In this document: positions 411-56,955 of the stretch, piece by piece
Numbering within the stretch: position 1 is the stretch's first letter
Layout: each line of letters begins with the position of its first letter
DNA from: Planctomycetota bacterium
GTDB taxonomy: Bacteria; Planctomycetota; UBA1135; UBA2386
Length of the DNA stretch: 64,000 nucleotides
Direction of reading: 5' to 3'
NCBI GenBank assembly: GCA_050181465.1
Contig: JBFXDD010000008.1
Span: 64,325 to 128,324, forward strand
The notes under the pieces: generated by a model
Seen by the model: the letters and a program-made list of their open reading frames with translations, nothing else
Told to the model about the DNA's origin: nothing
Database searches by the model: none
Program-made: the position numbers and the translations under genes

Positions 411-433
411 GCGGGCCGCCCCACGCGGTCCGC
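411..433. terminator. GC-rich hairpin in the 36-nt gap between convergent rplQ and dnaE
   Basis: GCGGGCCGC (411-419) pairs with GCGGTCCGC (425-433). This gives a 9 bp stem with one G-U and a 5-nt loop. There is no U-tract, so a terminator role is only inferred from position. Confidence 0.3.
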
Positions 434-439
434 GACGGT

Positions 440-3877: not shown

Positions 3878-3976
3878 GGCTCGAGAGCGACGCGCAGGTC
3901 GATTCGCGATCGACGAGTCCGCATCGATCGCCTCAGCATAGGTCGGCCGCGCAGCGAAGTCAGCGCGCGCGAGCTG

Positions 3977-5365
3977 TCAGCCGTCGTTGACGGTTGCCTT
4001 CGACGGCAGCTCCTGATCGTGAGCTCGCAAGAGGCCCATGCGCCGACCCACTTTCTCGAAGGAATCGATGACCCGCTGGCACTGCGCGGGAGTGTGCGCA
4101 GCCATGTACGACGACCGAACGAGATCCATTCCCTTCGGCACGGCGGGCCCGGTGACCGGATTCGTGAACACCCCGGCTTCGAACAGTTGCTTCCAGAACA
4201 GGAAGAGTTGGTCCTGGTTGCCGATGATGACCGGGACGATGGGGGTCTCGGTGCGGCCGACCCGGAATCCGAGGTCCTCCAGGCCGTCGCGCACCATCGT
4301 CGCCCGCTGCATCACATCTGCGCGCAGGCCCGGTTCCCGCTCGATCACATCCAGTGCTGCGAGTGCCGCAGCAGCCGCACTGGGCGGGATCGAAGCCGAG
4401 AAGATCAGCGACCGCGCATGGTGCTTGATGTAGTGGATCACCGACTCCGGTCCGGCAACGAAACCGCCGAGGCTGGCGAAACTCTTGCTGAAAGTGCCGA
4501 GAACCAAGTCGACCTGCGACTCGACCTTGCAGTGTTCCGCAGCGCCGCGGCCGTGCGCACCGAGTACGCCTGCCGAGTGCGCTTCGTCGACCAGCACGCG
4601 TGCCCCATAGCGTCGCGCCAGTTCGACGATCCGAGGCAGGTTCGCGATCTCGCCCATCATCGAGAACACTCCGTCCACGATGATCAGGCGGCCGCGGACG
4701 TTGTCCTCCAGGCTCGCCTCGAGTTGCCGCTCGAGGTCGCCCATGTCCTCGTGCCGGTACTTCCGCAGTTCGGCGAAACTGAGTCGGCAGCCGTCGAATA
4801 TGGACGCGTGGTTCTCACGGTCGCAGAAGATGACGTCGTCGCGGCCGCACAAGGCGGAGATCACGCCGAGGTTGGTCTGGAAGCCGGTCGAGAAGCACAG
4901 CGCGGCCTCTCGGTCGAGAAAGCGGGCGAGCCGACGCTCGAGTTCTTCATGCAACTCCAACGTTCCGTTGAGGAAGCGTGAACCGGTGCAGGAGGTACCG
5001 AATCGTTCGACGGCATCGCGCGCGGCAGCGATGACCTCGGGCCGGTGGGTGAGCCCGAGGTAGTTGTTGCTGCCGGCCATGATCAGGCGGCGGCCGTTGA
5101 TCTCGACTTCCGTGCCTTCGCTGTCGGTGATGGGGATGAAGTACGGATACATCCCGAGCGCCTGCACTTGCCGCGCCCGTGTGAAGCCGTCACACTTGTC
5201 GAAGAGGTCCAACGTTCGAAGTCGAGAAGCCGGTCGGCGCGCGGCTGCGTTCGCAACCGAGCCGAGCAAAAACCCTACGTTAGACGTGGCCGCATCCTTG
5301 GACAATTCTTTCGCCGGACCACTCCCGACCGGCCCGGTCCTGCTGACCGGGGCGACCGGGTTCAT
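3977..5365 (-). CDS. PLP-dependent alpha-oxoamine synthase, serine palmitoyltransferase-like
   Basis: Motifs seen: GSNNYLGL, GSRFLNGT, VDEAHSAG, PLP-lysine motif GTFSKSF, IFSASIPPS, and a C-terminal AAHTPAQCQ resembling bacterial Spt. The ATG at 5365 would overlap the divergent neighbour, so the start is uncertain (alternative TTG near 5269). Confidence 0.8.
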   Translation of the reverse strand: MNPVAPVSRTGPVGSGPAKELSKDAATSNVGFLLGSVANAAARRPASRLRTLDLFDKCDGFTRARQVQALGMYPYFIPITDSEGTEVEINGRRLIMAGSNNYLGLTHRPEVIAAARDAVERFGTSCTGSRFLNGTLELHEELERRLARFLDREAALCFSTGFQTNLGVISALCGRDDVIFCDRENHASIFDGCRLSFAELRKYRHEDMGDLERQLEASLEDNVRGRLIIVDGVFSMMGEIANLPRIVELARRYGARVLVDEAHSAGVLGAHGRGAAEHCKVESQVDLVLGTFSKSFASLGGFVAGPESVIHYIKHHARSLIFSASIPPSAAAAALAALDVIEREPGLRADVMQRATMVRDGLEDLGFRVGRTETPIVPVIIGNQDQLFLFWKQLFEAGVFTNPVTGPAVPKGMDLVRSSYMAAHTPAQCQRVIDSFEKVGRRMGLLRAHDQELPSKATVNDG

Positions 5366-6341
5366 CGGTGCGGTGGTCCTGCGCCGGCTGCGAGCGCTCG
5401 GTGTCGAGGTGAGGTGCTTGGTGCGCGATTCCGCGCGCGCGGCGAGGGCGGGGATCCCGACGGAGATTCAGCGGCTCGGCGACCTGGCCGACCCAGCGGC
5501 GGTGCGCGATGCGGCCGCCGGCGTCGCCAGCGTGCTTCACCTCGCAGGAGCGACCAAGTCGCTCGACGACGCCGGTTTCGAGCGCGCCAACGCCCACGGC
5601 GTGCAGACGCTGGCCGAGGTCACTCCCGACGGCGCGCGCTTCGTTCTGGTCTCGTCGCTGGCCGCGGTCGGACCGAGCCGGGACGGCGCCGCGACGGTTC
5701 GGCCGTCGAACGAAGCCACTCCGGTCTCCCGCTACGGGGCGAGCAAGCTGCGTGGGGAGCTGAAGCTCCTCGAGCACCGGGAGCGGCTCGACTGGTGCAT
5801 TCTGCGCCCGCCGATCGTCTACGGCCCCAACGACGACGGCACGCTGCTCCTGATCAAGCAGGCGCTCGGTTGGTTGGCGCCGGTGCCGACGCCACCGCGG
5901 CCGCTGTCGCTGATCCACGTCGAGGACTTGGCGTTGGCGTTGCTCCTCGCGCTGGGGCGGCGCGGAGTGCCCGGCTACTTCCCCACCGACGGCGCGGAAC
6001 GCAGCGACACGACCGCGCTCGTGCGCACGATCGCGAGGCTGGCGGGGCGACATGCTCGCCCGCTGCCCCTGCCGATGCTGCTCGCCCGCGCGGCCGGGCA
6101 CGTCGCCGACGTGTTTCATCGTTGGCGAGGGAAGCCGTCGTTCTTCTGCGCCGACAAGATGCGCGAGGCGAGCGCACCTGGTTGGGTTGCGGATCGGGAG
6201 GCGATTCTCGCCGCGCTCGGCTTTGCTCCCAGGATCGACTTGGCGGCAGGCTTCGGTCCGCTGCTCGGGCGACGGATTGCGGCGCCGACCGGCGCGGCGA
6301 CGGTTCAGGCCGCCGACAGTCCTGCTGGGCGGAGCGCGTAG
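5286..6341 (+). CDS. NAD-dependent epimerase/dehydratase (extended SDR) family protein
   Basis: Rossmann motif LLTGATGFIGAVV lies near the N-terminus. The listed ORF start 5064 runs antisense through the neighbouring gene, so it was trimmed to GTG 5286 (TTG 5298 is also possible). The 3' end overlaps convergent DoxX by 37 nt. Confidence 0.78.
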   Translation: MAASLDNSFAGPLPTGPVLLTGATGFIGAVVLRRLRALGVEVRCLVRDSARAARAGIPTEIQRLGDLADPAAVRDAAAGVASVLHLAGATKSLDDAGFERANAHGVQTLAEVTPDGARFVLVSSLAAVGPSRDGAATVRPSNEATPVSRYGASKLRGELKLLEHRERLDWCILRPPIVYGPNDDGTLLLIKQALGWLAPVPTPPRPLSLIHVEDLALALLLALGRRGVPGYFPTDGAERSDTTALVRTIARLAGRHARPLPLPMLLARAAGHVADVFHRWRGKPSFFCADKMREASAPGWVADREAILAALGFAPRIDLAAGFGPLLGRRIAAPTGAATVQAADSPAGRSA

Positions 6342-21512: not shown

Positions 21513-22943
21513 ATGCAACCGAAACATCGTCTCGCAACGATCTCCGCCACGGTGTTCACCGCGGCTGTCGCAGCGCAAAGCCCGAGCTTGATCACACCGT
21601 GCCACGACTTCCGCGCGATCGACGCGCAGATGCAAGCGGTGGTCGCGAGTGCCGCCCGAAGCGGAGCCAGCCTGTCGATCGCCCGGGACGGCGAACTGCT
21701 GTTGCGTCGCAGCTATGGGGGATTCGATGAGACGACCCAGGTGGCGATCGCCTCTGCGACCAAGTGGCTGTCGGGTGCCGTCATCATGGCTCTGGTCGAC
21801 GACGGCGTTCTCGACCTCGACGCGCCGGTCTCCCGCTATCTGCCGCAGTTCACCGGCCAGAAGGGGACGATGACGGTGCGGCAGATGTTCTCCCACACCT
21901 CGGGTCTGCCCGGCAACGACCCGATCATCAGCAACGACCGCATCACACTCGCGCAAGCCGTCGACCACATCGCCGCCAACGTCGCGCTGCGCGCTGCCCC
22001 GGGCGCCGAGTTCTTCTATGGAGGCGTCTCGATGCACGTCGCGGGACGCGTGGCCGAGGTAGTCAGCGGCATGGATTGGGCGTCGCTGTTCGTCGCGAAG
22101 ATCGCGGGACCGCTCCAGATGAACGCCACCGACTATCTCGGACTCGGCTCGGCGAGCAACCCACGCATCGCCGGCGGTGCCAGGAGCACACTGGGCGACT
22201 ACGAGAACTTCATGGCCATGATCCAGTCGCGGGGCGTCTTCCGCGGCCGGCGCGTCCTCAGCGCCGCCGCAGTGGACACGATGGTGCAAGACCAGACCCG
22301 CGGCGCGATCCCGGTGTCGGTGCCGCCGACCCTCGACGTCTTCCGCGGCTACGGCATCGGCTGCTGGATGGAGCGGATCGACAATGCGGGCGTGAGCCTC
22401 GAGATCTCCTCACCCGGTGCCTTCGGCTTCTCCGGCTTCCTCGATCTCGAGCGCGGCACTCACGGGGTGTTCATGGTCGAGAGCCTCAACTCCCGGACGG
22501 ATCCCTACTTCGACTTGGTGCGCGCGCTCACCCGCGACCAGCTCCGCTACCGCGGCGTCGAGTGCTACGGCGATTCTTCTCCGGCTTGCGACGGGCGCCT
22601 GCGACTGCGCACCAACGCGGAACCGCTCGTGGGTGAAGCGGGCTTCGCTCTGCTCGGCGATCATGCGCCGGCATCGACCAGCGGCGTGTGTCTGGTCTCG
22701 CCGTCGGCAGCGTTGCCGCCGCTGAGGATTCTTGGTGTCGATCTCCACGTCCCGCTCGGCCCGACCACGATCGCCGAGACGGTCTTCGCGGCGGCGGACG
22801 GATCCGTGACCCTCGCAATCCCGCTGACCACGGTTCCCGCGGGCACCCTGGTCTTCGCGCAACTGGTGATGCTGCCGACGCCGAACTGTGCGTCACCGAC
22901 GCTATTGGCCACGACTCACGGGATCTCGATTCGAATGGATTGA
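21513..22943 (+). CDS. Beta-lactamase-related serine hydrolase with an extra C-terminal Cys-containing module
   Basis: S-x-x-K motif ASATKWLSG. Signal-like N-terminus MQPKHRLATISATVFTAAVAAQ. The last ~125 aa form a separate module. Confidence 0.85.
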   Translation: MQPKHRLATISATVFTAAVAAQSPSLITPCHDFRAIDAQMQAVVASAARSGASLSIARDGELLLRRSYGGFDETTQVAIASATKWLSGAVIMALVDDGVLDLDAPVSRYLPQFTGQKGTMTVRQMFSHTSGLPGNDPIISNDRITLAQAVDHIAANVALRAAPGAEFFYGGVSMHVAGRVAEVVSGMDWASLFVAKIAGPLQMNATDYLGLGSASNPRIAGGARSTLGDYENFMAMIQSRGVFRGRRVLSAAAVDTMVQDQTRGAIPVSVPPTLDVFRGYGIGCWMERIDNAGVSLEISSPGAFGFSGFLDLERGTHGVFMVESLNSRTDPYFDLVRALTRDQLRYRGVECYGDSSPACDGRLRLRTNAEPLVGEAGFALLGDHAPASTSGVCLVSPSAALPPLRILGVDLHVPLGPTTIAETVFAAADGSVTLAIPLTTVPAGTLVFAQLVMLPTPNCASPTLLATTHGISIRMD

Positions 22944-23514
22944 TCGCAACGTCGTCGCAGCGCGTGCCGGCACGTCCGTGCCGATGCGACGCACGCCGAG
23001 TTCGTGCAGCCCGCGCCAGACCCCGGCATGGTCGGGCGCGCCGAAGAAGCGGAGCTCACGCCCGCAGCTTCACAGCGTCTGACCAGGGCCGTGAGCTGCT
23101 CGCGCAGTGCGGTCGAGAGTTCGCCCCAGCCCTTCCAATCGCTGACCTTGGCCCATCGATCGCGCAGAGCCTTGCTGCGTCGTTCGCGACGGCCAGGCGT
23201 GGACGATCGCCGCTGAGGATCACGGTCACCGCACCGTCTCGGCGTTCACCGTCGGAGTAGCTCGAGAGCATCCAGGCGTACTCTGCGAGTTGCTCGCGAA
23301 GCCGCGCATAGACAGCTTCGCCGTCCGCCTTGATGTCGACGAGCAGCAGGAACGGACGATCGCCGTCGAGCCAGCGACCCCCGCCCGCACGCGCGGCCCG
23401 CGCGAGCGGCTCGAGATACATCGCGCGCAGCGTGCGCTCGGCCCGCAAGTGCGCACGCTCGTGGCCGACGCGGAGTTGGTCGTCGACCAAGAAGACGTCC
23501 GCCTCGACGCTCCC
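22912..23514 (-). pseudogene. PLC-like phosphodiesterase (PI-PLC/GDPD superfamily) remnant, 5'-truncated and frameshifted
   Basis: Homology-like segments lie in three different minus-strand frames:
- SVEADVFLVDDQLRVGHE...FLLLVDIKADG...VTVILSGDRP (track ORF 23056..23490).
- RDRWAKVSDWKGWGELSTALREQLTALVRRCEAAG.
- GRELRFFGAPDHAGVWRGLHELGVRRIGTDVP (ends at TAG 22912-22914).
The N-terminal catalytic region is missing, and similarity starts within 9 nt of the MITE boundary. Confidence 0.6.
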
Positions 23515-23696
23515 TAGCCCGGACTATTCGTGAACGTCGTCGCGAGATCGCCGCAGGTCGATGTCCGGCAAGGAGCTGCGTCGGTCGACGACCGAAGCGT
23601 AGCTGTAGCTACGCTGCCAGGGAGGAGCCGACGTAGCGACGCAGACGGGCGCGACTTGCGGCGATCGCAGCAGACGTTCACGAATAGTCCGGGCTA
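23515..23696 (+). mobile_element. MITE-like element, copy 1 (182 bp)
   Basis: Perfect 24-bp terminal inverted repeats: TAGCCCGGACTATTCGTGAACGTC ... GACGTTCACGAATAGTCCGGGCTA. Central hairpin GCGTAGC-TGTA-GCTACGC (23597-23614). TA at both ends. No coding capacity. Confidence 0.87.
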
Positions 23697-23876
23697 CCCC
23701 GGACTATTCGTGAACGTCGTCGCGAGATCGCCGCAGGTCGATGTCCGGCAAGGAACTGCGTCGGTCGACGACCGAAGCGTAGCTGTAGCTACGCTGCCAG
23801 GGAGGAGCCGACGTAGCGACGCCGCTGGGCGCGACTTGTGGCGATCGCAGTAGACGTGCACGAATAATCCGGGCTA
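23695..23876 (+). mobile_element. MITE-like element, copy 2 (tandem, shares the TA at 23695-23696)
   Basis: It lies exactly 180 bp out of register from copy 1, with only a few substitutions. The 3' inverted repeat carries 2 mismatches (GACGTGCACGAATAATCCGGGCTA). Confidence 0.87.
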
Positions 23877-23879
23877 GGC

Positions 23880-24029
23880 CTAGTTCGACGCGGCTTCGAG
23901 CGGTCGCCGCTGCAGGTAGTCGTTGTGACCGCGCAGGCGCGCTGCGGGGTCGGGCCGCTTCGTCGGAAGCGATCCGCACGAAGCCAGCAGCAGGAGTAGC
24001 GAGCAGCCGAAACGGGGCAGCCGGAACAT
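23880..24029 (-). CDS. Small putative lipoprotein (49 aa, below ORF-track cutoff)
   Basis: ATG 24029: MFRLPRFGCSLLLLLASCGSLPTKRPDPAARLRGHNDYLQRRPLEAASN. Lipobox LLASC. About 83% G/C at third positions by hand count. It sits 75 nt downstream of the kinase stop on the same strand. No clear SD. Confidence 0.35.
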   Translation of the reverse strand: MFRLPRFGCSLLLLLASCGSLPTKRPDPAARLRGHNDYLQRRPLEAASN

Positions 24030-24104
24030 CGGGTCGAGCCTACGCGACCCGCTCAGCCATTCCGACCGAGTCGGCGACGCCGTTCACTCTGTCCTCACGC
24101 GAGC

Positions 24105-26567
24105 TCACTTCAGCTCAACCGGCGGCTCCAGCCCTCGGCGAGCGTACTCGGCAAGGATGCGCGCTCGGCAGCGATCGGCGATCGCCACGCCGTCCTTCGG
24201 CAGCTCCGCACATTCGGCGAGCAGTCGGCGATGGAGGTCCTGTGCGATGCCGTCGTCGCCGTTGCTGAGCCGGGCGAAGCCGAGCTCCGTGCGCAGCTCG
24301 ATCATCGCGGTGATGGATGGCACGGGAGTCACCGCGAGGGGGCGTGTGTGGGACTCGATCTCGGCGATCGCAGCTGCGGCGCGGCCGTCGAGCCGCAGTG
24401 CTCGGGAGAGGACGGCGAGATTGTGGATGCGCTGTGGATGCAGCGCCGGCAGGCGAACGGCCTGCGCGTCGACGGCGCTTCGAAGTGATTCGACGGCGGC
24501 CGCGGTGTCGCCTGCCTCCAACTGGATTGCGCCGAGATTCGCCAAAGTAGCCGCGATCGTCGGATGGTCGTTGGGCAGGCGCTGTCGGTAACCAAGCAGG
24601 GCCTGCTCGATCTGCTCGACCGCGCCGCCGAAGTCTTTGCCGCGCGCCATCACGACGCCCAGATTCGTCCGCAGCGAGAGCATGACGTCGAGAGGAGGGT
24701 CCACCGCCTCGCCGCACCGTTGGAGCGTCGCCAAGGCGTTCGGGATCGCATCCGGCGTGCGCGCCGCGAGTCGACATGTGGCGAGATCGATCTCCGCTTC
24801 GAGAGTCGCGCGGTCGTCGGCTCCGCCGGAACGAAAGCGGAGGAGGCGAAGCTCCTCCGCCAGTTTCAGTGCGTCCGTTGCACGACCGCTCTCGAGGGCC
24901 AACAGCATGACCTTTCGCTGCATCGACAGCCGGATCGGCGAGGTCGGCTCCAGTTCGGCGACCGCGAGTTTCCAACCGGCCTCGAGCGCCTGAGCTGCTT
25001 CACTCGTGCGCCCGAGCTTTCGCAGCGATTCACTGAGGGCTCCATGGGCGAGGATGCCGTCGTTCGTCGCTGTCAACCCGGCGCTCGCCATCAGGTCCAA
25101 AGCGACTCGACTGAGCTCCGCGCTGCTCTGCCAGTCACCGTTCGCGAATCGCACGGCGGCGAGGTAGTTCGCGGTGAGTGCGCGCGTGCGCGGCGACAGA
25201 TCCTCCCGCGCGATCTCGTGCTCGAGTTCGTCGCAGAAGTCGGCGATCGATGCGTCGCGACCACTCGCCGTGCCGATGGCTCGCGTGACCGTCGCCCGAA
25301 GCACGTCGACGACGCCCGCGACGGTCGCCTTCTCCTCCGCCAGGGCCTCGGCGTTCCGCTCTGCGGTCGCTCGCGCCGCCCTCGCCTCGGCTTCGTTGGA
25401 CTTGGCGACGGCCTCGGAAGCACGGACGCGATCCAGTGACTTCAAGCTGACCACGAGACCGGCAGCCAACGCCAGGACGACGGCGGCGATCGCGGCGACC
25501 ATCGCACGATGGTGCGCGAGAAACTTACGCAACCGATAGCGGCGCGACGGCGGGGCGGCGAGTAGGACGTCGCCGGCGAGCCACGCTCGCAGATCGGCGG
25601 CGAACTCGGCGGCCGTGCCGTAGCGCCGTTCCCGATCCTCGGCCGTCGCGCGGGCGAGGATCCAACCCAGTTCCCGGTCGCGTTCCAGCGCGCTGTCGTC
25701 CGCACACAGTTCGGCCAGCACCTTGCCGAGCGCGAACACGTCCGTGCGCGAGTCCAGGTCCGGCAGACCGCTCCGTTGCTCGGGCGACATGTATGCCGGT
25801 GTTCCCAGCACCACTCCGGCGGCGGTGCGCGGATCCTCGGCGGCGTCTTCGTCAGAGCGCGCGATCCCGAAGTCGACGATCTTGGGCACGCCGTCGCGAC
25901 CGACCAGCAAGTTGCCCGGCTTCAGATCGCGATGGATCACACCGCGTCGATGTGCGTGCTGGATCGCGTCCGCGATCGCCGCCATCCACTCGACGCGCCG
26001 CCGCAGGCTGATGCGGTGCGCCTGTGCGTGCTTCGTGATCGCTTGGGCATCGGCGATGAACTCGAGCGCATACCACGGCAACTCGAGTGCGAACGGCCCC
26101 GTCTCCTGAGCGTGCACTCCGGCGGCGAGGACCTTGGCGATGTTCTGGTGTTCGAGGCGAGCCAGCACTCTCGCTTCCGCCTCGAAGCGACGCAACCCGC
26201 TGCCGACGCTCAACTCCGGGCGCAGGACCTTCAAAGCCACCGTGCGCGCAGGTTGCAGTTGGAGGGCCTCGTAGACGGCGCCCATTCCGCCGCGAGCCAG
26301 GAAGCGCACGATCTGAAAGCCTTCGATGCGGGCGCCGTCCGCGAGTCGCAGGGATTCGTGCTCGCGCAAGGCACGCGCGGCGGCGGTGTCGAGTTCGGGC
26401 AGCCCTTGGTCGGAATCGGCGTCGAGGAGGCGGCGCACTTCGGTCGCGATGTCCGCGTCCTCTCGTGTGAGTTGTTCGAGTGCGCTCGAGCGGTCGAGGT
26501 CCGAGAGGTCCACCAGGCGCTCGAACGTGGCACGCACACGCTGCCACTGGGTGCCGGTGTCGGTCAT
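24105..26567 (-). CDS. Ser/Thr protein kinase with TM helix and C-terminal TPR repeats
   Basis: 820 aa starting at ATG 26567. Kinase motifs GGMGAVYEA, VALKVL, HRDLKPGNLLV, DFGIA, GTPAYMSPEQ. TM helix MVAAIAAVVLALAAGLVVSL, then a long helical/TPR region. The ATG overlaps the sigma-factor stop (ATGA). Confidence 0.92.
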   Translation of the reverse strand: MTDTGTQWQRVRATFERLVDLSDLDRSSALEQLTREDADIATEVRRLLDADSDQGLPELDTAAARALREHESLRLADGARIEGFQIVRFLARGGMGAVYEALQLQPARTVALKVLRPELSVGSGLRRFEAEARVLARLEHQNIAKVLAAGVHAQETGPFALELPWYALEFIADAQAITKHAQAHRISLRRRVEWMAAIADAIQHAHRRGVIHRDLKPGNLLVGRDGVPKIVDFGIARSDEDAAEDPRTAAGVVLGTPAYMSPEQRSGLPDLDSRTDVFALGKVLAELCADDSALERDRELGWILARATAEDRERRYGTAAEFAADLRAWLAGDVLLAAPPSRRYRLRKFLAHHRAMVAAIAAVVLALAAGLVVSLKSLDRVRASEAVAKSNEAEARAARATAERNAEALAEEKATVAGVVDVLRATVTRAIGTASGRDASIADFCDELEHEIAREDLSPRTRALTANYLAAVRFANGDWQSSAELSRVALDLMASAGLTATNDGILAHGALSESLRKLGRTSEAAQALEAGWKLAVAELEPTSPIRLSMQRKVMLLALESGRATDALKLAEELRLLRFRSGGADDRATLEAEIDLATCRLAARTPDAIPNALATLQRCGEAVDPPLDVMLSLRTNLGVVMARGKDFGGAVEQIEQALLGYRQRLPNDHPTIAATLANLGAIQLEAGDTAAAVESLRSAVDAQAVRLPALHPQRIHNLAVLSRALRLDGRAAAAIAEIESHTRPLAVTPVPSITAMIELRTELGFARLSNGDDGIAQDLHRRLLAECAELPKDGVAIADRCRARILAEYARRGLEPPVELK

Positions 26568-27127
26568 GGCTGCTGCCCGTCGCGAGATGCGAGGTTGGCT
26601 CGAAGCCAAGCGCGGGCGGTGCGCCAGCCGCGTTCGACGGTGCGGCTCGACACAGCGAGAGCGACGGCCGCTTCGGCCGCCGTCATTCCGGCGAAGAACA
26701 TCATTTCCACGATGGCGACGAGTTGCGGATCCAGCGCACTGAGTCGTTCGAGGGCAGACTCGAGATCGAGCACATCGATCGGCGCGGAATCCGTGGCTTC
26801 CAGCGAAGACGTCAACTGGAGCCGTCGACCGCCATCGCGCTTGCGAGCCGATCGCCGTCGGGCGTGATCGACCAGCACCGAGCGCATGGTCCGGCCGGCG
26901 AGAGCGAACCACTCGCCGCGACTGCGATCGTCGCGCGGGTTCAGGTTCGCGATGCGCAGCCACGCTTCGTGGAGCAGAGCGGTCGGCTGGAGCGTGTGGT
27001 CGCGCCGTTCGCCGGCGAGCTGTCGAGCGGCGAGATCGTGGAGGCTCGCGTAGAGCTCGGTGTCGAGACCGTCGCCGCGCGGGGGCTCCGCGGGGCCGGA
27101 GTCGTCTTCGGGTTCGGCGTTCGTCAC
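26564..27127 (-). CDS. ECF-type RNA polymerase sigma factor (kinase-associated type)
   Basis: 187 aa with a GTG start. ELYASLHDLAARQLAGERRDHTLQPTALLHEAWLRI is the hallmark of the Sigma70_ECF (PF07638-like) family. Region 4 HTH: MTAAEAAVALAVSSRTVERGWRTARAWL. Confidence 0.92.
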   Translation of the reverse strand: MTNAEPEDDSGPAEPPRGDGLDTELYASLHDLAARQLAGERRDHTLQPTALLHEAWLRIANLNPRDDRSRGEWFALAGRTMRSVLVDHARRRSARKRDGGRRLQLTSSLEATDSAPIDVLDLESALERLSALDPQLVAIVEMMFFAGMTAAEAAVALAVSSRTVERGWRTARAWLRANLASRDGQQP

Positions 27128-27163
27128 CGCCGGTCATTGTGCCGCCGCGACCGTGCCGTGGAC

Positions 27164-27345
27164 TAGCCCGGAAACTTCGTGAACGTCGTCGCGAGATCGA
27201 CGCAGGTCGATGCCCAGGAAGGAGCTGCGTCGGTCGACGACTGAAGCGTAGCTGTAGCTACGGTGCCAGGGAGGAGCCGACGTAGCGACGCCGTCGGGCG
27301 CGACTTGTGGCGATGGCAGTAGACGTTCACGACTGGTCCGGGTTA
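27164..27345 (+). mobile_element. MITE-like element, copy 3
   Basis: 182 bp in the same orientation as copies 1 and 2: TAGCCCGGAAACTTCGTGAACGTC...GACGTTCACGACTGGTCCGGGTTA. It fills most of the 267-bp divergent intergenic region between the sigma gene and the 756-aa gene. Confidence 0.85.
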
Positions 27346-27394
27346 CCGCGACAAAGTTGTCGGTCGTCGGGCCCCGCCTGCGTCCGCCCTCGCG

Positions 27395-29665
27395 ATGAAC
27401 TCGCTGCTCACTCGTTGCCGTTCGCTGCTGGGCTTGGCCGCTGCCTGGACTCTTGGCGGATCTGCAGTCGCCCAGGATCCTGCCGAGCTCGCTCTGCCTG
27501 CCGATACGTTCCGCTTTCGTGGCCATGTCATCGACGATACGCGCGGCGACGGCTGGGTCACCGCGCGCGGCGAGACCTACAAGCTCGAGGCCACCGGAGC
27601 CGAGTTCACGGTCGTCGGACTCTTCGGTCCCGACGCTCCTTCGATGCCGGTGCGGTTCGCGCTTCGATCGGCACGGCTGGGGGAGGCCGACGCGAACCTG
27701 GGCGATCCGGCGTCGCTCCTGCGCCGAGGCGATGGTCACGAACACAGTCGTCTCGAACTGAATCACGGTGACGTTCTCGAGCGCTGGCGGGTGATGGATC
27801 GCAGTCTCGAACAGAGCTTCGTCTTCGGGCGGTCGGTGGTCGGGACCGGCGCGAGCTTGGTCATCGAGGTCGACACGCTCCTGCCCATCCTCGTCGATGG
27901 CGATGGGGTCGCGTTCCCGGCCGGCGACCACGGCACCATTCGCTACCGCGACTTCGCGGTGACCGACGCGATCGGGCAGCGCCGCTCGTTGCCGATTCGC
28001 CTCGACGGACGGCGTATCATCCTTGCGGCCTCCGCGAAGCAACTCGCCGGAATGGTGGAACCGATCGTGTTCGATCCGACGATCACCTTCGTCGGCATCC
28101 GACTCGGGACGACACGCGCGAGGTTCCCGGACGTCGCCGTGGATCCGCTGCATCGTCGGATCGCCGTGTGCTACGAAGAAGTCATCAGTGCCACCGACAC
28201 CGATGTGATGTTCGCGCACTTGAACTCGCAAGGCGGTGTGGTCACGCAGTTCGCGCTCGACAATCGGAGCGTGCGGACCGTGCGGCCGCGCATCGCGAGT
28301 TCACTGCACGGCCAGATGTTCGCGGCTGTGTGGCGGCAAGCCGCCGGGGCAGGCATCGATCGGATCGAATCGAGGCGAATCAGCACGATCGACATGACCG
28401 TGCAGTCGCTACAAACCCTGGCTCAGGCACCGAGCGGGCGGTTCGCGACGGATCCGGACATCGGCGGATCGGTCTCCACCGTGGACACTGCCTTCCTCTT
28501 CGGATTCGGCACCTTCGAGGATGGCGTCTTCCCACGGAACAGCGAGGTGATCGTCGGTGGGCTGAGTAGGGATGGTGTTCGGACCGGGTTGCGCACTCTG
28601 GATTCCGACACGGGTTGCACCTCGCAGCCGCAGGTTGCGGTCAGTCGGCACGGTGGCTCGTTCGGGCAGTTCGGAGTCGTCTACACCCACGGTCGCGGCT
28701 GTCTGTCGAATCAGACCGATATCGCGTTCGCGGTCGTGAACTCGACGACGACTCCCGTCTTCGGCCCGACGCTCGTCGCGACGAACAGCGGTGCCGACCA
28801 GCGGCCCGACGTCGCCGCGATCGACAATCGGTGGTTCGTGGTGTTCGAGCGACTGACGGGCAGCAACAACGACCTGATCGGTGCGGCGTTTCGGTTCGGC
28901 AACGGCGTGTTCACGCGCACCTTCGGGCCGGTGGTCATGAGCGCGCTCGAGCCCGGGGTGAACCTCGCACTCGCTCAGGTGAATCCGTCGATCGACTTCG
29001 ACGGTTGCCGATTCAGCTACGCCTATCGCGAAGGCACGAGCGCGCCGCGCGTGCGCACCGCGACCTTCGCGCTGGCGAGCGATGCGGGGAGCATCCAGTT
29101 CTCGGCCGGCAACGAGCCGATCGACGGCAACACTGCGGATGCCTTCGATACCCCGCGTCTGGCCTTCGGTGGTGAGGAAGTCTCGCGGGCCTTCGTGGCA
29201 TGGACCGGGGGGACCAACAACACCGATGAGGACGTGGTGGGGGCCTTGATCGATGTTGCCGCGGATGGCTTCCCGCCGTTCACCACTCTGCGAACGGGCT
29301 GCGGCACGCGGGGCATTCCGAGCAAGCGGGTGCTGCTCGGCGGTGACCTTGCCGTGATTGGCCGACCCATGACGCTCGTCGTCGATCCGGCGGCCGGATC
29401 GAACGCCATCCTGATCGGACTCGTTGCGCCTTCGCCGCTGCCGTTGTGCGGTGGTGGAGTGGCTCCTTGTCTGCTCGGCGTCGACCCGATTCTGTCGGCG
29501 ATCCAGGGCAACGGAACGCGAGTCGCAGTGCCCTGCGATCCGAACTTGGTTGGGGCGCCGATCGCCGTGCAGGTGGTCGACTTCTTCGTCGGCGGCGGCT
29601 GCGGTGCCGCGGTGTTCGGAGTGCCGCTGACGGTGTCGGACACCCTGGTCGTGCGGCTGCTATGA
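27395..29665 (+). CDS. Secreted hypothetical protein with C-terminal Cys-containing module
   Basis: 756 aa with signal peptide MNSLLTRCRSLLGLAAAWTLGGSAVAQ. Composition is beta-rich and no catalytic motif was recognised. The last ~125 aa resemble the C-terminal module of the 21513..22943 product. Confidence 0.8.
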   Translation: MNSLLTRCRSLLGLAAAWTLGGSAVAQDPAELALPADTFRFRGHVIDDTRGDGWVTARGETYKLEATGAEFTVVGLFGPDAPSMPVRFALRSARLGEADANLGDPASLLRRGDGHEHSRLELNHGDVLERWRVMDRSLEQSFVFGRSVVGTGASLVIEVDTLLPILVDGDGVAFPAGDHGTIRYRDFAVTDAIGQRRSLPIRLDGRRIILAASAKQLAGMVEPIVFDPTITFVGIRLGTTRARFPDVAVDPLHRRIAVCYEEVISATDTDVMFAHLNSQGGVVTQFALDNRSVRTVRPRIASSLHGQMFAAVWRQAAGAGIDRIESRRISTIDMTVQSLQTLAQAPSGRFATDPDIGGSVSTVDTAFLFGFGTFEDGVFPRNSEVIVGGLSRDGVRTGLRTLDSDTGCTSQPQVAVSRHGGSFGQFGVVYTHGRGCLSNQTDIAFAVVNSTTTPVFGPTLVATNSGADQRPDVAAIDNRWFVVFERLTGSNNDLIGAAFRFGNGVFTRTFGPVVMSALEPGVNLALAQVNPSIDFDGCRFSYAYREGTSAPRVRTATFALASDAGSIQFSAGNEPIDGNTADAFDTPRLAFGGEEVSRAFVAWTGGTNNTDEDVVGALIDVAADGFPPFTTLRTGCGTRGIPSKRVLLGGDLAVIGRPMTLVVDPAAGSNAILIGLVAPSPLPLCGGGVAPCLLGVDPILSAIQGNGTRVAVPCDPNLVGAPIAVQVVDFFVGGGCGAAVFGVPLTVSDTLVVRLL

Positions 29666-29709
29666 GCGGCTGCGCTGCGCGTCGACTCCTCGCCGCGTCA
29701 CCCGACTCC

Positions 29710-29891
29710 TAGCCCAGACGTTTCGTGAACGTCTGCTGCGATCGCCGTAACTCGCGACCGGCCGGATCGCTACGTCGGCTCCGCCCCGGCAGCGTAGCCA
29801 CGGCCACGCTTCGGTCCTCCTCCGACGCAGCTCCTTGTCGGGCATCGACCTGCCCCGATCTCGCGACGACGTTCACGAAGAGTTCGGACTC
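29710..29891 (-). mobile_element. MITE-like element, copy 4 (inverted orientation, more diverged)
   Basis: TAGCCCAGACGTTTCGTGAACGTCTGCTGCGATCGCCG... equals the reverse complement of the 3' end of copies 1-3. The far end reads GACGTTCACGAAGAGTTCGGACTC. 182 bp. Confidence 0.8.
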
Positions 29892-30127
29892 GGACGTTCC
29901 GCCGACGCACTTGGCCGAGCTCCGACCACCGACGTGCCCTGGGCAAAGACGTCCGCAGTCCGGGGGTGCTCCCGTGCGCCTCGATCGCCGAGCCTTGCCC
30001 GAGACGTGGCCGCGTCGAGGTGTTGCCGAGCCGCCGCGCCTGCCAGTGCATCGCCGGAGCCGCCGCGCTGGAGTTGAATCTGACGAGCGATCTGCGAGGA
30101 TTCTGCTCGGTTGGTTTGGGAGGCCTC

Positions 30128-31894
30128 GTGAGTCCGCAAGTCTTCATCAGCTACAGCCACGATTCCGCCGCCCACAAGGAGGAGGTGCGCTCCGTCGCGG
30201 ACTTCTTGGCGGAGCACGGTTTCGACGTCATTCTCGACCAGTATGAGGTCGTGCCTGCCGATGGTTGGGCGGCATGGTCGGCGCGAGCGGTGAGTCGTGC
30301 GGACTTCATCCTCGCGATTTGCTCCAGCAAGTACTGCGCTGCCTATGAACCGCTCGATGTCGGGTCGTCGACGGGCCTGGGGGCGGCGTGGGAGGCGCGG
30401 ATGATTCGAACGCGACTATACGAGGGTCGAGCGAGCGGCGGTCGGGTGTTCCCGATCGTGCTCGCCGAATCCGACGTCGACAGTCTCCCGATCGAGCTGC
30501 GTGGTCTGCGCTGGTTCCTGCTGCCGCAGCATGCGGAGGACCTCTTGTGCGCGATGGGAGTAGGACCGTCCCGCGCTGACGAGATCGAACTTCCCGGTGG
30601 TCGGCAACCCTCGACGATCGAGTCGTCCGGCGCGGTCGAGGCATCGACCGAACGAGTACCCGAAGTCGCACCCGCGACGGTGGCCCCTCTCTCCGGCGTG
30701 ACCCGTTGGCTCGCAGCAGCCGTGGTCACCGCCGGGTTGTTCGCGGCACTTGTCTGGCGTCCCGGGACGGCGAGAGAACTGGAGCTGACTTCGGCAGACG
30801 AGAGGCAAACTCCCGTTGCGCTGACGCCCAGTCCCGCGGAGATCTCGCCGCTTGGCGATCACCTGGTGACTTTGCATGCCGAGCCACCGCTACGATCCCT
30901 CGCGATCGCGGACTGTGAGGTCGAGTATGACGCAACGCGTCAGTCGTGGACGCTTCGCTGGCGTGGAGATCTCGAGCCTCGCGAACTTCGTTTGCCCTGG
31001 CATGGAACCACAGCGAGCGGATCGCCGGCATCCGGCGAGCTACGAATGAACCTTCGGTATCGCTCGCGTGCCCCGGTCGGCTTTCGGATCGAGATCGATG
31101 ATCCGATGGATCGGGGGTTCGCGCGCTGTGTCACTCACCTGGCCAGCGGCATACGCCTGCGCCTGTGCCCCGCCGGCGAGTACTCCCTGGGATCCGACGA
31201 GCGGGAAGACGAGCCCCGTCGAACGATTCGACTGGACGAACCCTTCTATCTCGGCGAGACGGAGGTCACCGTTGCGCAATGGAGGGCATTCGCCGTCGCG
31301 TCGGGTTACCAGTCGACCGCGGAACGCAGTGGTTCGGGCGGCGTGACGTTGATCGACGGCGAGTGGACGCAGCGTCAGGAAGTGCACTGGCGGACGCCGA
31401 TGCTCCATGAGGCATACGTGAACTCGGATTCTCATCCGGTCGCGCAGATCGCCTTCGACGATGCCCTGGCGTTCTGCCAGCACTACGGGCTGCGGCTGCC
31501 GAACGAGGAGGAGTGGGAGATCGCGTGCCGCGCCGGCTCCACGACCACCTTCTGGTGGGGTGACGAGGAGGTCGCGGCGTTGGATCGAGCGAACATCGCC
31601 GATGCGTCGCTGGCGCCGTTCTACCCCGCCGGCGAATTCTTCGGAGTTCGCGATCACGCACCGTTCCTCGCGCCGGTGGCCGCTTCGATGCCCAACGACT
31701 TCCACCTGTTCGACATGATCGGGAACGTGTGGGAGTGGTGCGACAACCGCGGCAGTCGATCACAACGTTGGGCGCTGCGCGGGGGCTCGTGGGCCAGCCG
31801 ACCGTCGTCGGCTCGGGCTTCCAATCGGCTGGACAACCTTCGTGAAGCCAGAAGCGATGTGATCGGATTCCGAGTCGCCGCGAATCCCGACTGA
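30128..31894 (+). CDS. SEFIR/TIR-fold domain, single TM helix, then FGE-sulfatase (SUMF1-like) domain protein
   Basis: GTG 30128 is preceded by GGGAGG (30118-30123).
- N-terminus: VFISYSHDSAAHKEEVRSVADFLAEHGFDVILDQYE...ADFILAICSSKYC (SEFIR/TIR pattern).
- TM: WLAAAVVTAGLFAALVW (about 30704-30757).
- C-terminus from about 31145: RLPNEEEWEIACRAG, GNVWEWCDN, LRGGSWAS...IGFRVA. Confidence 0.85.
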   Translation: MSPQVFISYSHDSAAHKEEVRSVADFLAEHGFDVILDQYEVVPADGWAAWSARAVSRADFILAICSSKYCAAYEPLDVGSSTGLGAAWEARMIRTRLYEGRASGGRVFPIVLAESDVDSLPIELRGLRWFLLPQHAEDLLCAMGVGPSRADEIELPGGRQPSTIESSGAVEASTERVPEVAPATVAPLSGVTRWLAAAVVTAGLFAALVWRPGTARELELTSADERQTPVALTPSPAEISPLGDHLVTLHAEPPLRSLAIADCEVEYDATRQSWTLRWRGDLEPRELRLPWHGTTASGSPASGELRMNLRYRSRAPVGFRIEIDDPMDRGFARCVTHLASGIRLRLCPAGEYSLGSDEREDEPRRTIRLDEPFYLGETEVTVAQWRAFAVASGYQSTAERSGSGGVTLIDGEWTQRQEVHWRTPMLHEAYVNSDSHPVAQIAFDDALAFCQHYGLRLPNEEEWEIACRAGSTTTFWWGDEEVAALDRANIADASLAPFYPAGEFFGVRDHAPFLAPVAASMPNDFHLFDMIGNVWEWCDNRGSRSQRWALRGGSWASRPSSARASNRLDNLREARSDVIGFRVAANPD

Positions 31895-31927
31895 GGTCGG
31901 AGTGGGCGGTATCTTCCACCCGCACCC

Positions 31928-32923
31928 GTGAAGCGTCTCCGTCGCATCATCCTACTCACGTTCGTCGGTCTGGCCGCGGCGATCGGCGTCGCCTGGCTCG
32001 CCAGCCTCGTTTCCCTCTGGCCGGTAGTCCTGCTCGTGAGGTTCACGTTCGACCGCGGTGCAATCGCCGCGAGCGAAGCCCTGCTGCCGCATGTGCCACC
32101 GAGCGTCCGCGCCGAACTCGATGTCGAGTATCGCACACACCCGCGCCGCCGTGCCCTCGACGTCTACCTGCCGCCGTCGGACGAGCGCGATGCCGAGCTT
32201 CGAACGATCGTCTGGATTCACGGCGGGGGTTTCGTCTCCGGGACGAAGGCGCAAGTCGGCAACTATGCGCGCATCCTCGCCGGTCGAGGTTTCGCGGTCG
32301 TGGCGGTCGACTACTCCATCGCACCGGAAGCGACCCATCCGCAGCCGGTCCTGGAAGTCGACGCCGCACTCCGATTCCTCGGTAGCGAGGCCCGTCGCTG
32401 GTCGCTCGATACGAAGCGGCTCGTCCTCGCCGGCGATTCGGCCGGTTCCCACATCGCTGCGCAGCTCGCGCTCGCACATGTCGATTTCGACTATCGCGAG
32501 CGACTCGGGCTGGAAGTTCTGCCGGTGGGCGTTGCGATCGCCGGGCTCGTGCTCTGCTGCGGGATCTTCGATCCGCCCGCGCTCGACTTCGAAGGCGAGC
32601 TCGGTTGGTTCCTGCGCACCGCGGCCTGGGCTTACGCCGGTCGCAAGGACTTTGCCGAGGATGCGACCTTCGCACTCACCGCACTGCCGCGGTTTCTACC
32701 GCGCGGGATGCCGCCGGTGTTCCTGACGGCCGGCAACGCCGATCCGCTCCTGCCCCAATCGCTTGCCTTCGCCGATGCCTTGCGCGCTCGCGACGGCCGG
32801 GTGGAGACCTTGTTCTTCCCGGCCCAGCGCGCACCCGCGCTCGGTCACGAGTATCAGTTCAACTTGGACGATGCCGGCCGCGAGGCGCTCGAAGCCATCG
32901 TGCGATTCGTGGCCTCGCTCTGA
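31928..32923 (+). CDS. Alpha/beta hydrolase (HSL-type esterase/lipase) with N-terminal anchor
   Basis: Oxyanion motif WIHGGGF, nucleophile elbow GDSAGS, N-terminal hydrophobic helix. GTG start. Confidence 0.88.
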   Translation: MKRLRRIILLTFVGLAAAIGVAWLASLVSLWPVVLLVRFTFDRGAIAASEALLPHVPPSVRAELDVEYRTHPRRRALDVYLPPSDERDAELRTIVWIHGGGFVSGTKAQVGNYARILAGRGFAVVAVDYSIAPEATHPQPVLEVDAALRFLGSEARRWSLDTKRLVLAGDSAGSHIAAQLALAHVDFDYRERLGLEVLPVGVAIAGLVLCCGIFDPPALDFEGELGWFLRTAAWAYAGRKDFAEDATFALTALPRFLPRGMPPVFLTAGNADPLLPQSLAFADALRARDGRVETLFFPAQRAPALGHEYQFNLDDAGREALEAIVRFVASL

Positions 32924-34513: not shown

Positions 34514-34579
34514 GACCGGCGGTTGAATCGCCGCGCGGAGACGGCAGAATCCCCAGCCCCCGTCGCGCGACGACCTCGC

Positions 34580-34666
34580 GGAGAGGTGCCAGAGCGGCTG
34601 ATCGGGACAGTCTCGAAAACTGTTGTGGCCGCGAGGCCACCGGGGGTTCGAATCCCCCCCTCTCCG
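34580..34666 (+). tRNA. tRNA-Ser (anticodon CGA)
   Basis: Cloverleaf: acceptor GGAGAGG/CCTCTCC, anticodon arm ACAGT-CTCGAAA-ACTGT, long variable arm, T-arm GGGGG-TTCGAAT-CCCCC, discriminator G. CCA is not encoded. Confidence 0.93.
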
Positions 34667-34670
34667 TCCT

Positions 34671-34866: not shown

Positions 34867-34954
34867 GGAGAGGTGCCCGAGTGGCTTAAGGAGCTCGCTT
34901 GGAAAGCGAGTGTGGGTCAAAAGCCCACCGGGGGTTCGAATCCCCCCCTCTCCG
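34867..34954 (+). tRNA. tRNA-Ser (anticodon GGA)
   Basis: Acceptor and T arms are identical to the first tRNA-Ser. Anticodon arm CTCGC-TTGGAAA-GCGAG, long variable arm, discriminator G. Confidence 0.93.
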
Positions 34955-56892: not shown

Positions 56893-56955
56893 GCCCGCAG
56901 TCTTCGTGAGCGGCGTCGCGAGATCGCCGCAGACGTTCACGAATGGTTCGGGTTA
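56893..56955 (+). repeat. Internally deleted derivative of the 182-bp MITE-like element
   Basis: GCCCGCAGTCTTCGTGAGCGGCGTCGCGAGATCGCCGCA joined directly to GACGTTCACGAATGGTTCGGGTTA. Both element ends are present and the central ~120 bp are absent. Confidence 0.72.

Follow-up and report, generated by a model that had tools for sequence, protein, structure and literature searches.

The locus described here lies in a 64-kb stretch of a Planctomycetota contig, the whole of which is called the window below. It comprises an extracytoplasmic function (ECF) sigma factor gene, a Ser/Thr kinase gene and, divergent from both, the gene for a 756-residue secreted protein (p756), followed by genes for a SEFIR-transmembrane (TM)-FGE protein and an esterase; four full copies of a short palindromic element lie around these genes. 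A first-pass annotation, made from the nucleotide sequence, had read the element copies as dividing an island whose genes may form one envelope-sensing or defence module, assembled in a recombination-prone spot. Our analysis points instead to an ancestral three-part core, consisting of an ECF43-type sigma factor, a Hanks-type kinase and the divergent p756 gene, with incidental insertions of the element and with the SEFIR gene as an add-on, a reading that we regard as moderately likely. The features of the locus are as follows, by coordinate.

22902..23514, minus strand: C-terminal remainder of a disrupted lipoprotein gene (pseudogene), from blastn and alignment to positions 4481-5314 of the sister locus L003
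23515..23876, plus strand: tandem pair of element copies 1 and 2, laid out as TA-E1-TA-E2-TA, inside the 277-residue lipoprotein gene
23517-23694, plus strand: element copy 1 (repeat search, alignment, blastn)
23697-23874, plus strand: element copy 2 (repeat search, alignment, blastn)
23880..24029, minus strand: N-terminal remnant of the disrupted lipoprotein gene, 49 codons, with signal peptide and lipobox
24105-26567, minus strand: Hanks-type Ser/Thr kinase, 820 residues (Pkinase 3.8e-30; TPR_12)
26564-27127, minus strand: sigma factor, 187 residues, GTG start (PF07638 2.1e-40; TIGR02999)
27128..27163, minus strand: residual sigma upstream region, 36 nucleotides (nt) between the start codon and the element
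27166-27343, plus strand: element copy 3, with TA flanks 27164..27345
27358..27386, plus strand: promoter-like motif TGTCGGTCG-N12-TGCGTCCG, ending 8 nt before the p756 ATG
27395-29665, plus strand: p756, 756 residues, secreted, with a signal peptide and no family model
29712-29889, inverted (minus strand): element copy 4, with flanks 29710..29891, 46 nt past the p756 stop codon
30128..31894, plus strand: SEFIR/TIR-TM-FGE-sulfatase protein, 588 residues (Pfam PF08357 9.3e-12; PADLOC bSEFIR)
31928-32923, plus strand: esterase, a membrane-anchored alpha/beta-hydrolase of the hormone-sensitive-lipase type (Pfam)
56893-56952, plus strand: fifth, mini-copy of the element, internally deleted to about 60 nt with both ends kept

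These calls bear out the gene list of the first-pass annotation: a sigma factor (27127-26564), a kinase-TPR protein (26567-24105) coupled to it through ATGA, the secreted 756-residue protein, the SEFIR-TM-FGE protein and an anchored esterase. Its 182-bp unit, reported at three sites, was likewise recovered by repeat search, alignment and blastn, and corresponds to a 178-nt element plus the flanking dinucleotides. For comparison we used two JGI metagenome contigs, L003 and a second copy, L004, which represent an element-free sister with 82-90% nucleotide identity to the window; the window's own contig (L001) was included among the loci compared. Logan short-read contigs from two landfill metagenome runs (X1 and X2) were placed on window positions 22800-32600. 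The kinase protein occurs identically, letter for letter, on contig JBFWQB010000001.1 of GCA_050249675.1 and in landfill Logan contigs.

The sigma factor scores 161.8 bits against TIGR02999 (cut-off 126.15) and is a two-domain (sigma2 and sigma4) ECF protein of the PF07638/TIGR02999 type. Canonical ECF sigma factors carry an acidic DAED motif in region 2.2 (PMC13147305, PMC8999054), the ECF43 consensus in this region being QTTA, with the Thr as phospho-acceptor (PMC13147305, PMC8999054, PMC8103513). Region 2.2 of the window protein reads HTLQPTALLHEAW, with QPTA, including Thr49, in place of the acidic DAED/DxxD motif. A Thr rather than a Ser acceptor favours ECF43 over the other kinase-linked groups, ECF59-62 and ECF217 (PMC8103513), and on these features the protein is best described as ECF43-like. 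It is predicted to be inactive until Thr49 is phosphorylated. The kinase consists of an N-terminal extension of about 84 residues, a kinase domain (85-296) with the VALK, HRD, DFG and SPE motifs all present, one TM helix (about 349-381) and a C-terminal TPR region. Its start codon overlaps the sigma stop codon by 4 nt (ATGA), and no zf-HC2 or other anti-sigma domain was detected among the neighbours scanned between 21 and 33 kb. Because the ratios of non-synonymous to synonymous substitution rates (dN/dS) against L003 are 0.09 for the sigma factor and 0.15 for both the kinase and p756, all three appear to be under purifying selection. Two candidates from this part of the locus were set aside. 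One is a 1010-residue open reading frame (ORF) from an ATG at 27137 (24105-27137, minus strand), rejected as a fusion because it reflects the kinase frame staying open for 570 nt across the sigma gene in GC-rich DNA; the other is the set of kinase matches to PADLOC PD-T4-6, MADS and the like, which are generic kinase-domain matches and were not accepted as evidence of defence.

The pair resembles EcfK/PknS of Xanthomonas citri in that both sigma factors are of the PF07638/ECF43 type and carry uncharged residues, Q-x-T-A, in region 2.2 (PMC13147305, PMC8999054), the motif itself reading QATE in EcfK and QPTA in the window protein. PknS (833 residues, with an 83-residue extension) likewise combines an N-terminal extension, a kinase domain, one TM helix and a TPR region, the last being periplasmic in PknS (PMC13147305). 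The neighbouring genes are the presumed output in both cases; for EcfK/PknS this is a type VI secretion system, whereas in the window it would be a single secreted propeller protein, and EcfK is proteobacterial whereas the window pair comes from Planctomycetota and is known from sequence alone. Similarly, EcfP/PknT of Vibrio parahaemolyticus, which the first-pass annotation had correctly adduced as background for control of such sigma factors by a co-encoded Ser/Thr kinase, combines a replaced DAED motif (STTA there, QPTA here) and an intrinsically inactive sigma factor with Thr as the phospho-acceptor and a co-encoded Hanks kinase (PMC8999054, PMC8103513). Its signal is polymyxin and its regulon is known, and the kinase ectodomain differs from that of the window kinase. 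We also noted a Thr-Ser-Ser cluster at sigma residues 106-108 (window 26807-26815; LQLTSSLE, with LELTTGV as its counterpart in the related locus L019) in the sigma2-sigma4 linker, which is reminiscent of the second phosphosite set reported for EcfK, T104-S110 (PMC13147305).

Regulation by an ECF43 sigma factor and a Hanks kinase is as such already known; what is new here is the p756 cargo family and its association with kinases and sigma factors, the promoter-like motif, and the anatomy of three insertions. ECF43 sigma factors gated by kinases abound in Planctomycetota and related phyla, and to our knowledge their signals and outputs are known in two proteobacterial cases only. The locus offers a concrete promoter motif and a conserved family lacking a Pfam model as a candidate ECF43 output or partner.

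No Pfam or NCBIfam model matches p756, and no Pfam match was found in those family members whose records were checked. A word-indexed search returned only 3 homologs, and a profile search of the word-indexed protein collection added almost none; exhaustive phmmer searching of 1.84 billion representatives gave 719 homologs at E<=1e-3 and 474 at E<=1e-10, mostly full-length proteins of 700-800 residues with 25-39% identity. By homology, p756 is then a member of a large undescribed family without a Pfam model. The homologs in L003 and in a further locus, L005, are 86% and 67% identical, respectively, and an alignment of 8 family sequences gave 3 loci in a metagenome scan. An AlphaFold2 model (pLDDT 86.9, pTM 0.83, from a 40-sequence alignment) predicts, after the signal peptide, an N-terminal beta-sandwich (about 45-220), a beta-propeller (about 229-620) and a C-terminal Cys-containing sandwich (about 645-755). 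Its best Foldseek matches are sialidase-type propellers with 7-12% identity, which is a generic fold match. A C-terminal module common to p756 and a serine hydrolase had been proposed, and was dropped when BLASTP gave no significant alignment.

The genomic contexts of p756-family genes outside the window genus are given below.

L018/L019: PF07638 sigma factor, 57% identical to that of the window and sharing the HTLQPTAL motif, divergent and 107 nt upstream of the p756 homolog; kinase, 44% identical over residues 6-220, 24 nt downstream of the p756 homolog
L020 (1-5401): kinase with an FGE-sulfatase ectodomain, then an ECF sigma factor, then the p756 homolog
L013: 1024-residue STK-TPR kinase, 86 nt upstream of the p756 homolog on the same strand
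L011: 5'-truncated, TPR_12-rich ORF upstream of the p756 homolog, homologous to the kinase juxtamembrane segment (kinase remnant)
L009: a kinase on each side of the p756 homolog, plus an ECF sigma factor
L016: ECF sigma factor and zf-HC2 anti-sigma factor directly upstream of the p756 homolog
L005, L008, L010, L012, L014: p756 homolog with neither kinase nor sigma neighbour
L007, L017: contigs too short to judge the neighbours

A kinase and/or an ECF sigma factor stands beside the p756-family gene in 7 of the 12 informative contexts (the window genus being counted), and the gene orders differ among them.

Two of these loci have further peculiarities. The L020 kinase, which is 5'-truncated, shows a TM helix ahead of its C-terminal FGE-sulfatase ectodomain, and its sigma factor has a canonical acidic region 2.2 (TAEDLVQ), so that the p756 family also pairs with a non-ECF43 sigma factor. 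L012 carries two tandem p756-family paralogs of 760 and 749 residues (413-4958) beside FG-GAP repeat and DUF4915 proteins, with no kinase or sigma factor within the 12-kb locus.

Upstream regions of the p756-family genes in the window, L003 and L018 yielded a motif, TGTCGGTCG-N12-TGCGTYCG, whose two-block consensus across five lineages is TGTCGGTCR-N12-YGCGTYC. It has one match in the 64-kb window, with 0.00 expected. The relaxed form TGTCGG-N15-17-GCGTY matches once in each of 7 of the 19 loci searched (L001, L003, L004, L005, L007, L018 and L019), in each case immediately before the p756-family gene, and the 19 loci hold no other match; in L005 the motif stands 12 nt before the start codon though no sigma gene is nearby. 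The window and L003 agree at every position of the two blocks but differ at 4 of the 17 nt that separate TGTCGG from GCGTCC, and the sigma factors of the window and L019 share an identical region-4 recognition helix, VSSRTVERGWRTARA. The ATG falls 6-10 nt past the second block in four of the five lineages, with no Shine-Dalgarno sequence discernible by eye, and this spacing suggests that the family mRNA is leaderless or nearly so in these four. From its co-location with the sigma gene we infer that the motif is a sigma-dependent promoter of p756. No copy precedes the SEFIR gene or the esterase gene, and a sigma-70 consensus scan found no promoter in 23.4-30.2 kb. Relaxed-motif matches at 58483-58510 and 63929-63955 were dismissed as chance, about 0.9 being expected; the second falls within a coding region, and no gene begins after it.

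The recurrent neighbourhood (7 of 12) and the presence of the two-block motif in five lineages together argue for a functional link between the sigma/kinase pair and p756. In the mechanism that we propose, the core would consist of an ECF43-type sigma factor, a translationally coupled TM Hanks kinase with an extracytoplasmic TPR sensor, and the divergent p756 gene. An envelope signal would be relayed by the kinase to the sigma factor, which in its phosphorylated form would direct p756 transcription through TGTCGGTCG-N12-TGCGTCC; p756 may in addition partner the kinase ectodomain. The earlier suggestion that the sigma/kinase pair may control the divergent genes holds up to this extent for p756, on neighbourhood and motif, and found no evidence on the side of the SEFIR gene.

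Several points weigh against the three-part core as we describe it. The motif is tied to the window sigma factor by co-location only, and no copy precedes the sigma/kinase operon, so that no autoregulation is seen. Five of the 12 informative p756 contexts lack a kinase or sigma factor nearby, the contexts sampled are a small, non-random set of top hits, and kinases are so numerous in these phyla that the chance background of kinase adjacency is not negligible. A search for runs containing the stretch returned DNA only and no RNA. The sister comparison rests on one close genome, no outgroup keeps the neighbourhood, so that insertion of the SEFIR gene here and its loss in the sister both fit, and at every element join the contig of the metagenome-assembled genome (MAG) is threaded through a high-copy repeat.

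It is possible, at clearly lower odds than the sigma-controlled core, that p756 is mainly a signalling partner, i.e. a periplasmic or secreted ligand-binding co-sensor on the kinase ectodomain, a role compatible with sigma control. This would agree with L013, L011 and L018, where the p756 homolog is co-directional with the kinase gene at a distance of 24-173 nt with no sigma gene between, and with the predicted propeller-and-sandwich fold, which is a generic ligand-binding one for which no catalytic family match was found. L016, on the other hand, pairs the p756 homolog with a classical sigma/anti-sigma system and no kinase, and the interaction with the kinase is a conjecture. Extending both ideas, the p756 family might be the dedicated extracytoplasmic part of a widespread, undescribed three-part system, serving at once as kinase co-sensor and as leaderless sigma target of the promoter given above, in a sense-and-amplify loop. 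This extension, which takes in a family of about 700 clusters at 50% identity and receptor kinases with either TPR or FGE ectodomains, strikes us as rather doubtful, and its corollary is weaker still, namely that one extracellular cue may be shared by the SEFIR-TM-FGE protein beside p756 and the FGE-type kinases that the module has in other lineages, which would couple an immune-type effector to that cue. The L020 kinase with its FGE ectodomain is a hint in this direction, but FGE-type kinases are common among the matches of the SEFIR homolog search. If the family-wide link were true, several hundred unannotated proteins would gain a functional context.

We think it unlikely that the adjacency is mere inherited synteny, with the targets of the sigma/kinase pair elsewhere and p756 an unrelated neighbour. 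L005, whose p756 homolog is 67% identical, shows neither sigma factor nor kinase in its 7.9-kb contig, the five contexts lacking such neighbours point the same way, and Vibrio ECF43 regulons are not confined to neighbouring genes (PMC8999054). Yet L005 retains the motif before its start codon, the recognition helices of the window and L019 sigma factors are identical, and the sigma/kinase neighbours recur in rearranged orders (divergent, co-directional or sandwiched) around homologs that are just 25-33% identical. Such recurrent adjacency is hard to explain by inherited synteny alone.

On the age of the elements the sister genome is informative. L003 is collinear with window positions 21591-41881 at 82-90% nucleotide identity, with exactly three gaps (blastn): the tandem pair, copy 3, and the stretch 29667-31927, which holds copy 4 at its left edge together with the SEFIR gene and measures 2261 nt in the window against 50 nt in L003. 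The element core is absent from L003, L004 and L005. Precise empty sites are found in L003 at the two simple element sites; the middle one lies in an 84-nt divergent intergenic region and reads ggacCAgcgcgacaaag, against ggacTA-element-TAccgcgacaaag in the window. The L003 dinucleotides at the empty sites are CA and GA, a TA duplication being suggested by the flanks and not proven. Since the sister shows the gene order without any element, the elements appear to be recent insertions into an older arrangement. On this interpretation, the element would have landed at three sites in this lineage: in the divergent intergenic region, in the lipoprotein gene and downstream of p756. The first-pass annotation had asked whether the 23.5-32 kb block is variable or absent in relatives, and had named conservation of its order without the repeats as a refutation; L003 shows such conservation for all except the SEFIR gene.

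At the middle site, 267 nt separate the sigma GTG from the p756 ATG, and 182 of them belong to the element and its TA flanks, as the first-pass annotation had stated. The insertion, whose right edge is at 27345, stops 12 nt short of the -35-like block (27358) and would have spared the predicted p756 core promoter. Of the native sequence upstream of the sigma gene just 36-37 nt remain; a 15-nt block in it is shared with L003, and the CACAAT within this block is a candidate -10. If so, the matching -35 would abut the insertion point and the element would sit in a gap of about 13 nt between two back-to-back core promoters; otherwise the sigma operon would now be transcribed from within or across the element. 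The claim that at least one promoter must lie in or across the element is hence sound in its logic provided that CACAAT is not the -10. The insertions may affect expression of the genes beside them, and the two genomes offer a natural comparison of one unit with and without a mobile-element insertion between back-to-back promoters. At the centre of the ancestral 84-nt region there is also a palindrome, GACAAAGTTGTC (window 27350-27361; L003 8454-8465), which overlaps the -35-like block and lies 5 nt from the element insertion; it may serve as an operator or belong to both divergent promoters.

The left site of L003 holds an intact 277-residue gene (4481-5314) on the kinase strand, 74 nt downstream of the kinase gene. 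Its product shows a lipobox and the motif HGHNDY and, by eye, looks like a PLC-like phosphodiesterase, but neither Pfam nor NCBIfam has a model that matches it. In the window this gene is split by the tandem pair, its N-terminal remnant stopping at a TAG where L003 has a sense codon, and compared with the intact sister gene it has also lost 53 nt in one deletion and 1 nt in another. The element would have inserted twice, in nested fashion, and the gene would have decayed since. The 49-residue lipoprotein of the first-pass annotation is real as an ORF with a lipobox, and the pseudogene that it saw cut at the element on the left border is indeed decayed; the two are, however, the ends of one disrupted gene, which may once have stood third in the sigma-kinase operon. 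At the right site, copy 4 would form a hairpin of about -100 kcal/mol placed 46 nt past the p756 stop codon. Copy 4 and the SEFIR gene stand between p756 and the esterase gene; in L003 the esterase gene follows the p756 homolog after 50 nt.

The four full copies (repeat search, four-way alignment, blastn) share 81-95% pairwise identity, copy 4 being the most diverged (81-86%). Copy 1 has a 22-nt perfect terminal inverted repeat (blastn), and the flanks are TA everywhere except for TC at the SEFIR side of copy 4. A 24-nt core occurs exactly 4 times and in 0 of 100 shuffles; the whole folds as one long hairpin (-103.6 kcal/mol, z = -6.3), and an Rfam scan of 22.5-33.5 kb found no family match for it or anything else. 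Being short and non-coding with terminal inverted repeats, it agrees with a miniature inverted-repeat transposable element (MITE). Single-copy depth across 22800-32600 is about 85 in X1 and 165 in X2, compared with summed depths of 50,994 and 108,732 for the tandem pair, 5,960 and 12,860 for copy 3, and 1,378 and 2,544 for copy 4, i.e. 15-600 times the single-copy value, as contig depth and not as an exact copy number. Loose element ends in X1 (at least 71 contigs on the left and at least 61 on the right) have mutually unlike flanks, more than 60 different ones at each end, with consensus agreement below 0.5, and diverged copies are also present on other contigs of genome-like depth. Given this excess depth and the dozens of distinct flanks, the element clearly exists in many dispersed copies in the source metagenome. 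TA-duplicating bacterial MITEs include the Correia elements of Neisseria and those derived from IS630/Tc1-mariner transposons. The window element resembles them in its small size, lack of coding capacity, terminal inverted repeats and TA flanks, as well as in its high copy number, its intergenic and promoter insertions and the long hairpin that it would form when transcribed, whereas its sequence family is unrelated to theirs. Three insertion sites in 6.4 kb constitute a local excess, the rest of the window holding one mini-copy only; this fits insertion tolerance in accessory DNA, or local hopping, and not a structural role. Upstream of the sigma gene in the distant lineage of L018, CCGGACTATAGCCGG (872-890) shares 9 nt (CCGGACTAT) with the element terminal repeat, probably by coincidence; it contains TATAGT, which may be the -10 of that gene.

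The SEFIR gene most likely starts at GTG 30128, 5 nt after a GGGAGG Shine-Dalgarno sequence, and not at 29966. Its product has an N-terminal SEFIR/TIR domain, one TM helix at 191-213 and an FGE-sulfatase domain. PADLOC bSEFIR (PDLC03957), a single-gene anti-phage defence protein, matches residues 3-130 at 2.2e-28. The likeness is to the N-terminal SEFIR/TIR-fold domain: the alignment covers positions 39-161 of a 412-position model, and the full-length bSEFIR architecture is not found here, its remainder being replaced by the TM helix and the (extracytoplasmic) FGE-sulfatase domain. In a search of 5.8 billion proteins the best homolog reached 38% identity across 47% of the query, hence no close one was found. 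The SEFIR-TM-FGE combination nevertheless recurs in databases (P0008-P0013), alongside kinase-FGE and caspase-FGE proteins and one kinase-SEFIR-FGE fusion (P0027), and a literature search found no description of a SEFIR and FGE-sulfatase combination. The gene is absent from L003 and L004, and in 21.6-32.9 kb is the only difference in gene content between the window and L003. With a third-position G+C content (GC3) of 0.75 it is the lowest of the set yet within its range, so that composition does not mark it as foreign, and the imperfect TA/TC flanks of copy 4 are only suggestive as to whether it was gained here or lost in the sister. From this distribution, the SEFIR gene appears to be a lineage-specific add-on and not part of the conserved unit.

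These results leave the first-pass model, in which the elements served as recombination joints and the sigma/kinase pair controls p756, the SEFIR-TM-FGE protein and the esterase together, very unlikely. Three sites in 6.4 kb are indeed denser than in the rest of the window, the SEFIR gene abuts copy 4 with a TC flank in place of TA on its side, the kinase in the kinase-sigma-p756 operon of L020 carries an FGE-sulfatase ectodomain, and the P0027 fusion joins kinase, SEFIR and FGE. Against this, the sister genome keeps the same order with neither the elements nor the SEFIR gene, the element is multicopy, and the variable segment described below is not bounded by it. Moreover, the promoter motif does not recur upstream of the SEFIR or esterase genes, the SEFIR gene is preceded by 236 nt of upstream region and a Shine-Dalgarno sequence of its own, the -100 kcal/mol hairpin intervenes between it and p756, and the esterase adjoins p756 homologs in no other lineage sampled. 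Least credible of all is a MAG misjoin of the blocks through the repeat: short-read (Logan) contigs do end inside every element copy and the p756-SEFIR join is a 28-nt overlap within a terminal repeat, yet pseudogene, kinase, sigma factor, p756 and esterase follow one another in the same order in the element-free L003 and L004, single contigs from each of two runs carry the SEFIR and esterase genes joined to each other, and the junction of copy 4 with the SEFIR upstream region is seen in a third run too.

The unit itself sits in a larger variable segment. Scanning genome contigs for the OTCase gene recovered one relative, more distant than the sister, "MAG: Planctomycetota bacterium STL-PLA50" (L006). 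Its OTCase gene directly faces an epimerase gene in convergent orientation, with aminotransferase and dnaE genes next in line, and the window counterparts of the epimerase, aminotransferase and dnaE genes lie at 443-6272. Window positions 6272-32939 (about 26.6 kb) are missing between the convergent epimerase and OTCase genes (L006 10975-10980), and it is within this larger stretch of 6.3-32.9 kb that the block whose variability the first-pass annotation had queried is absent; the part from 21.6 to 32.9 kb is kept in L003. Because it is missing from STL-PLA50, the 26.6-kb stretch is best seen as a large accessory segment, and it is not bounded by the elements. Its GC and GC3 are within the range of the neighbours, with no deviant composition, and there is no integrase among the ORFs scanned. 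Besides the sigma/kinase unit it holds an oxidoreductase, a 1719-residue FG-GAP/cytochrome protein, an MFS transporter, sulfotransferases and a beta-lactamase-fold protein. The epimerase is 55% identical between the window and STL-PLA50, compared with 79-86% for its neighbours. No tRNA gene lies at the segment border; two tRNA-Ser genes (34579-34669 and 34867-34954, anticodons CGA and GGA) stand 1.6 kb beyond it, behind conserved genes, between the deaminase and dnaX genes, and are conserved in L003.

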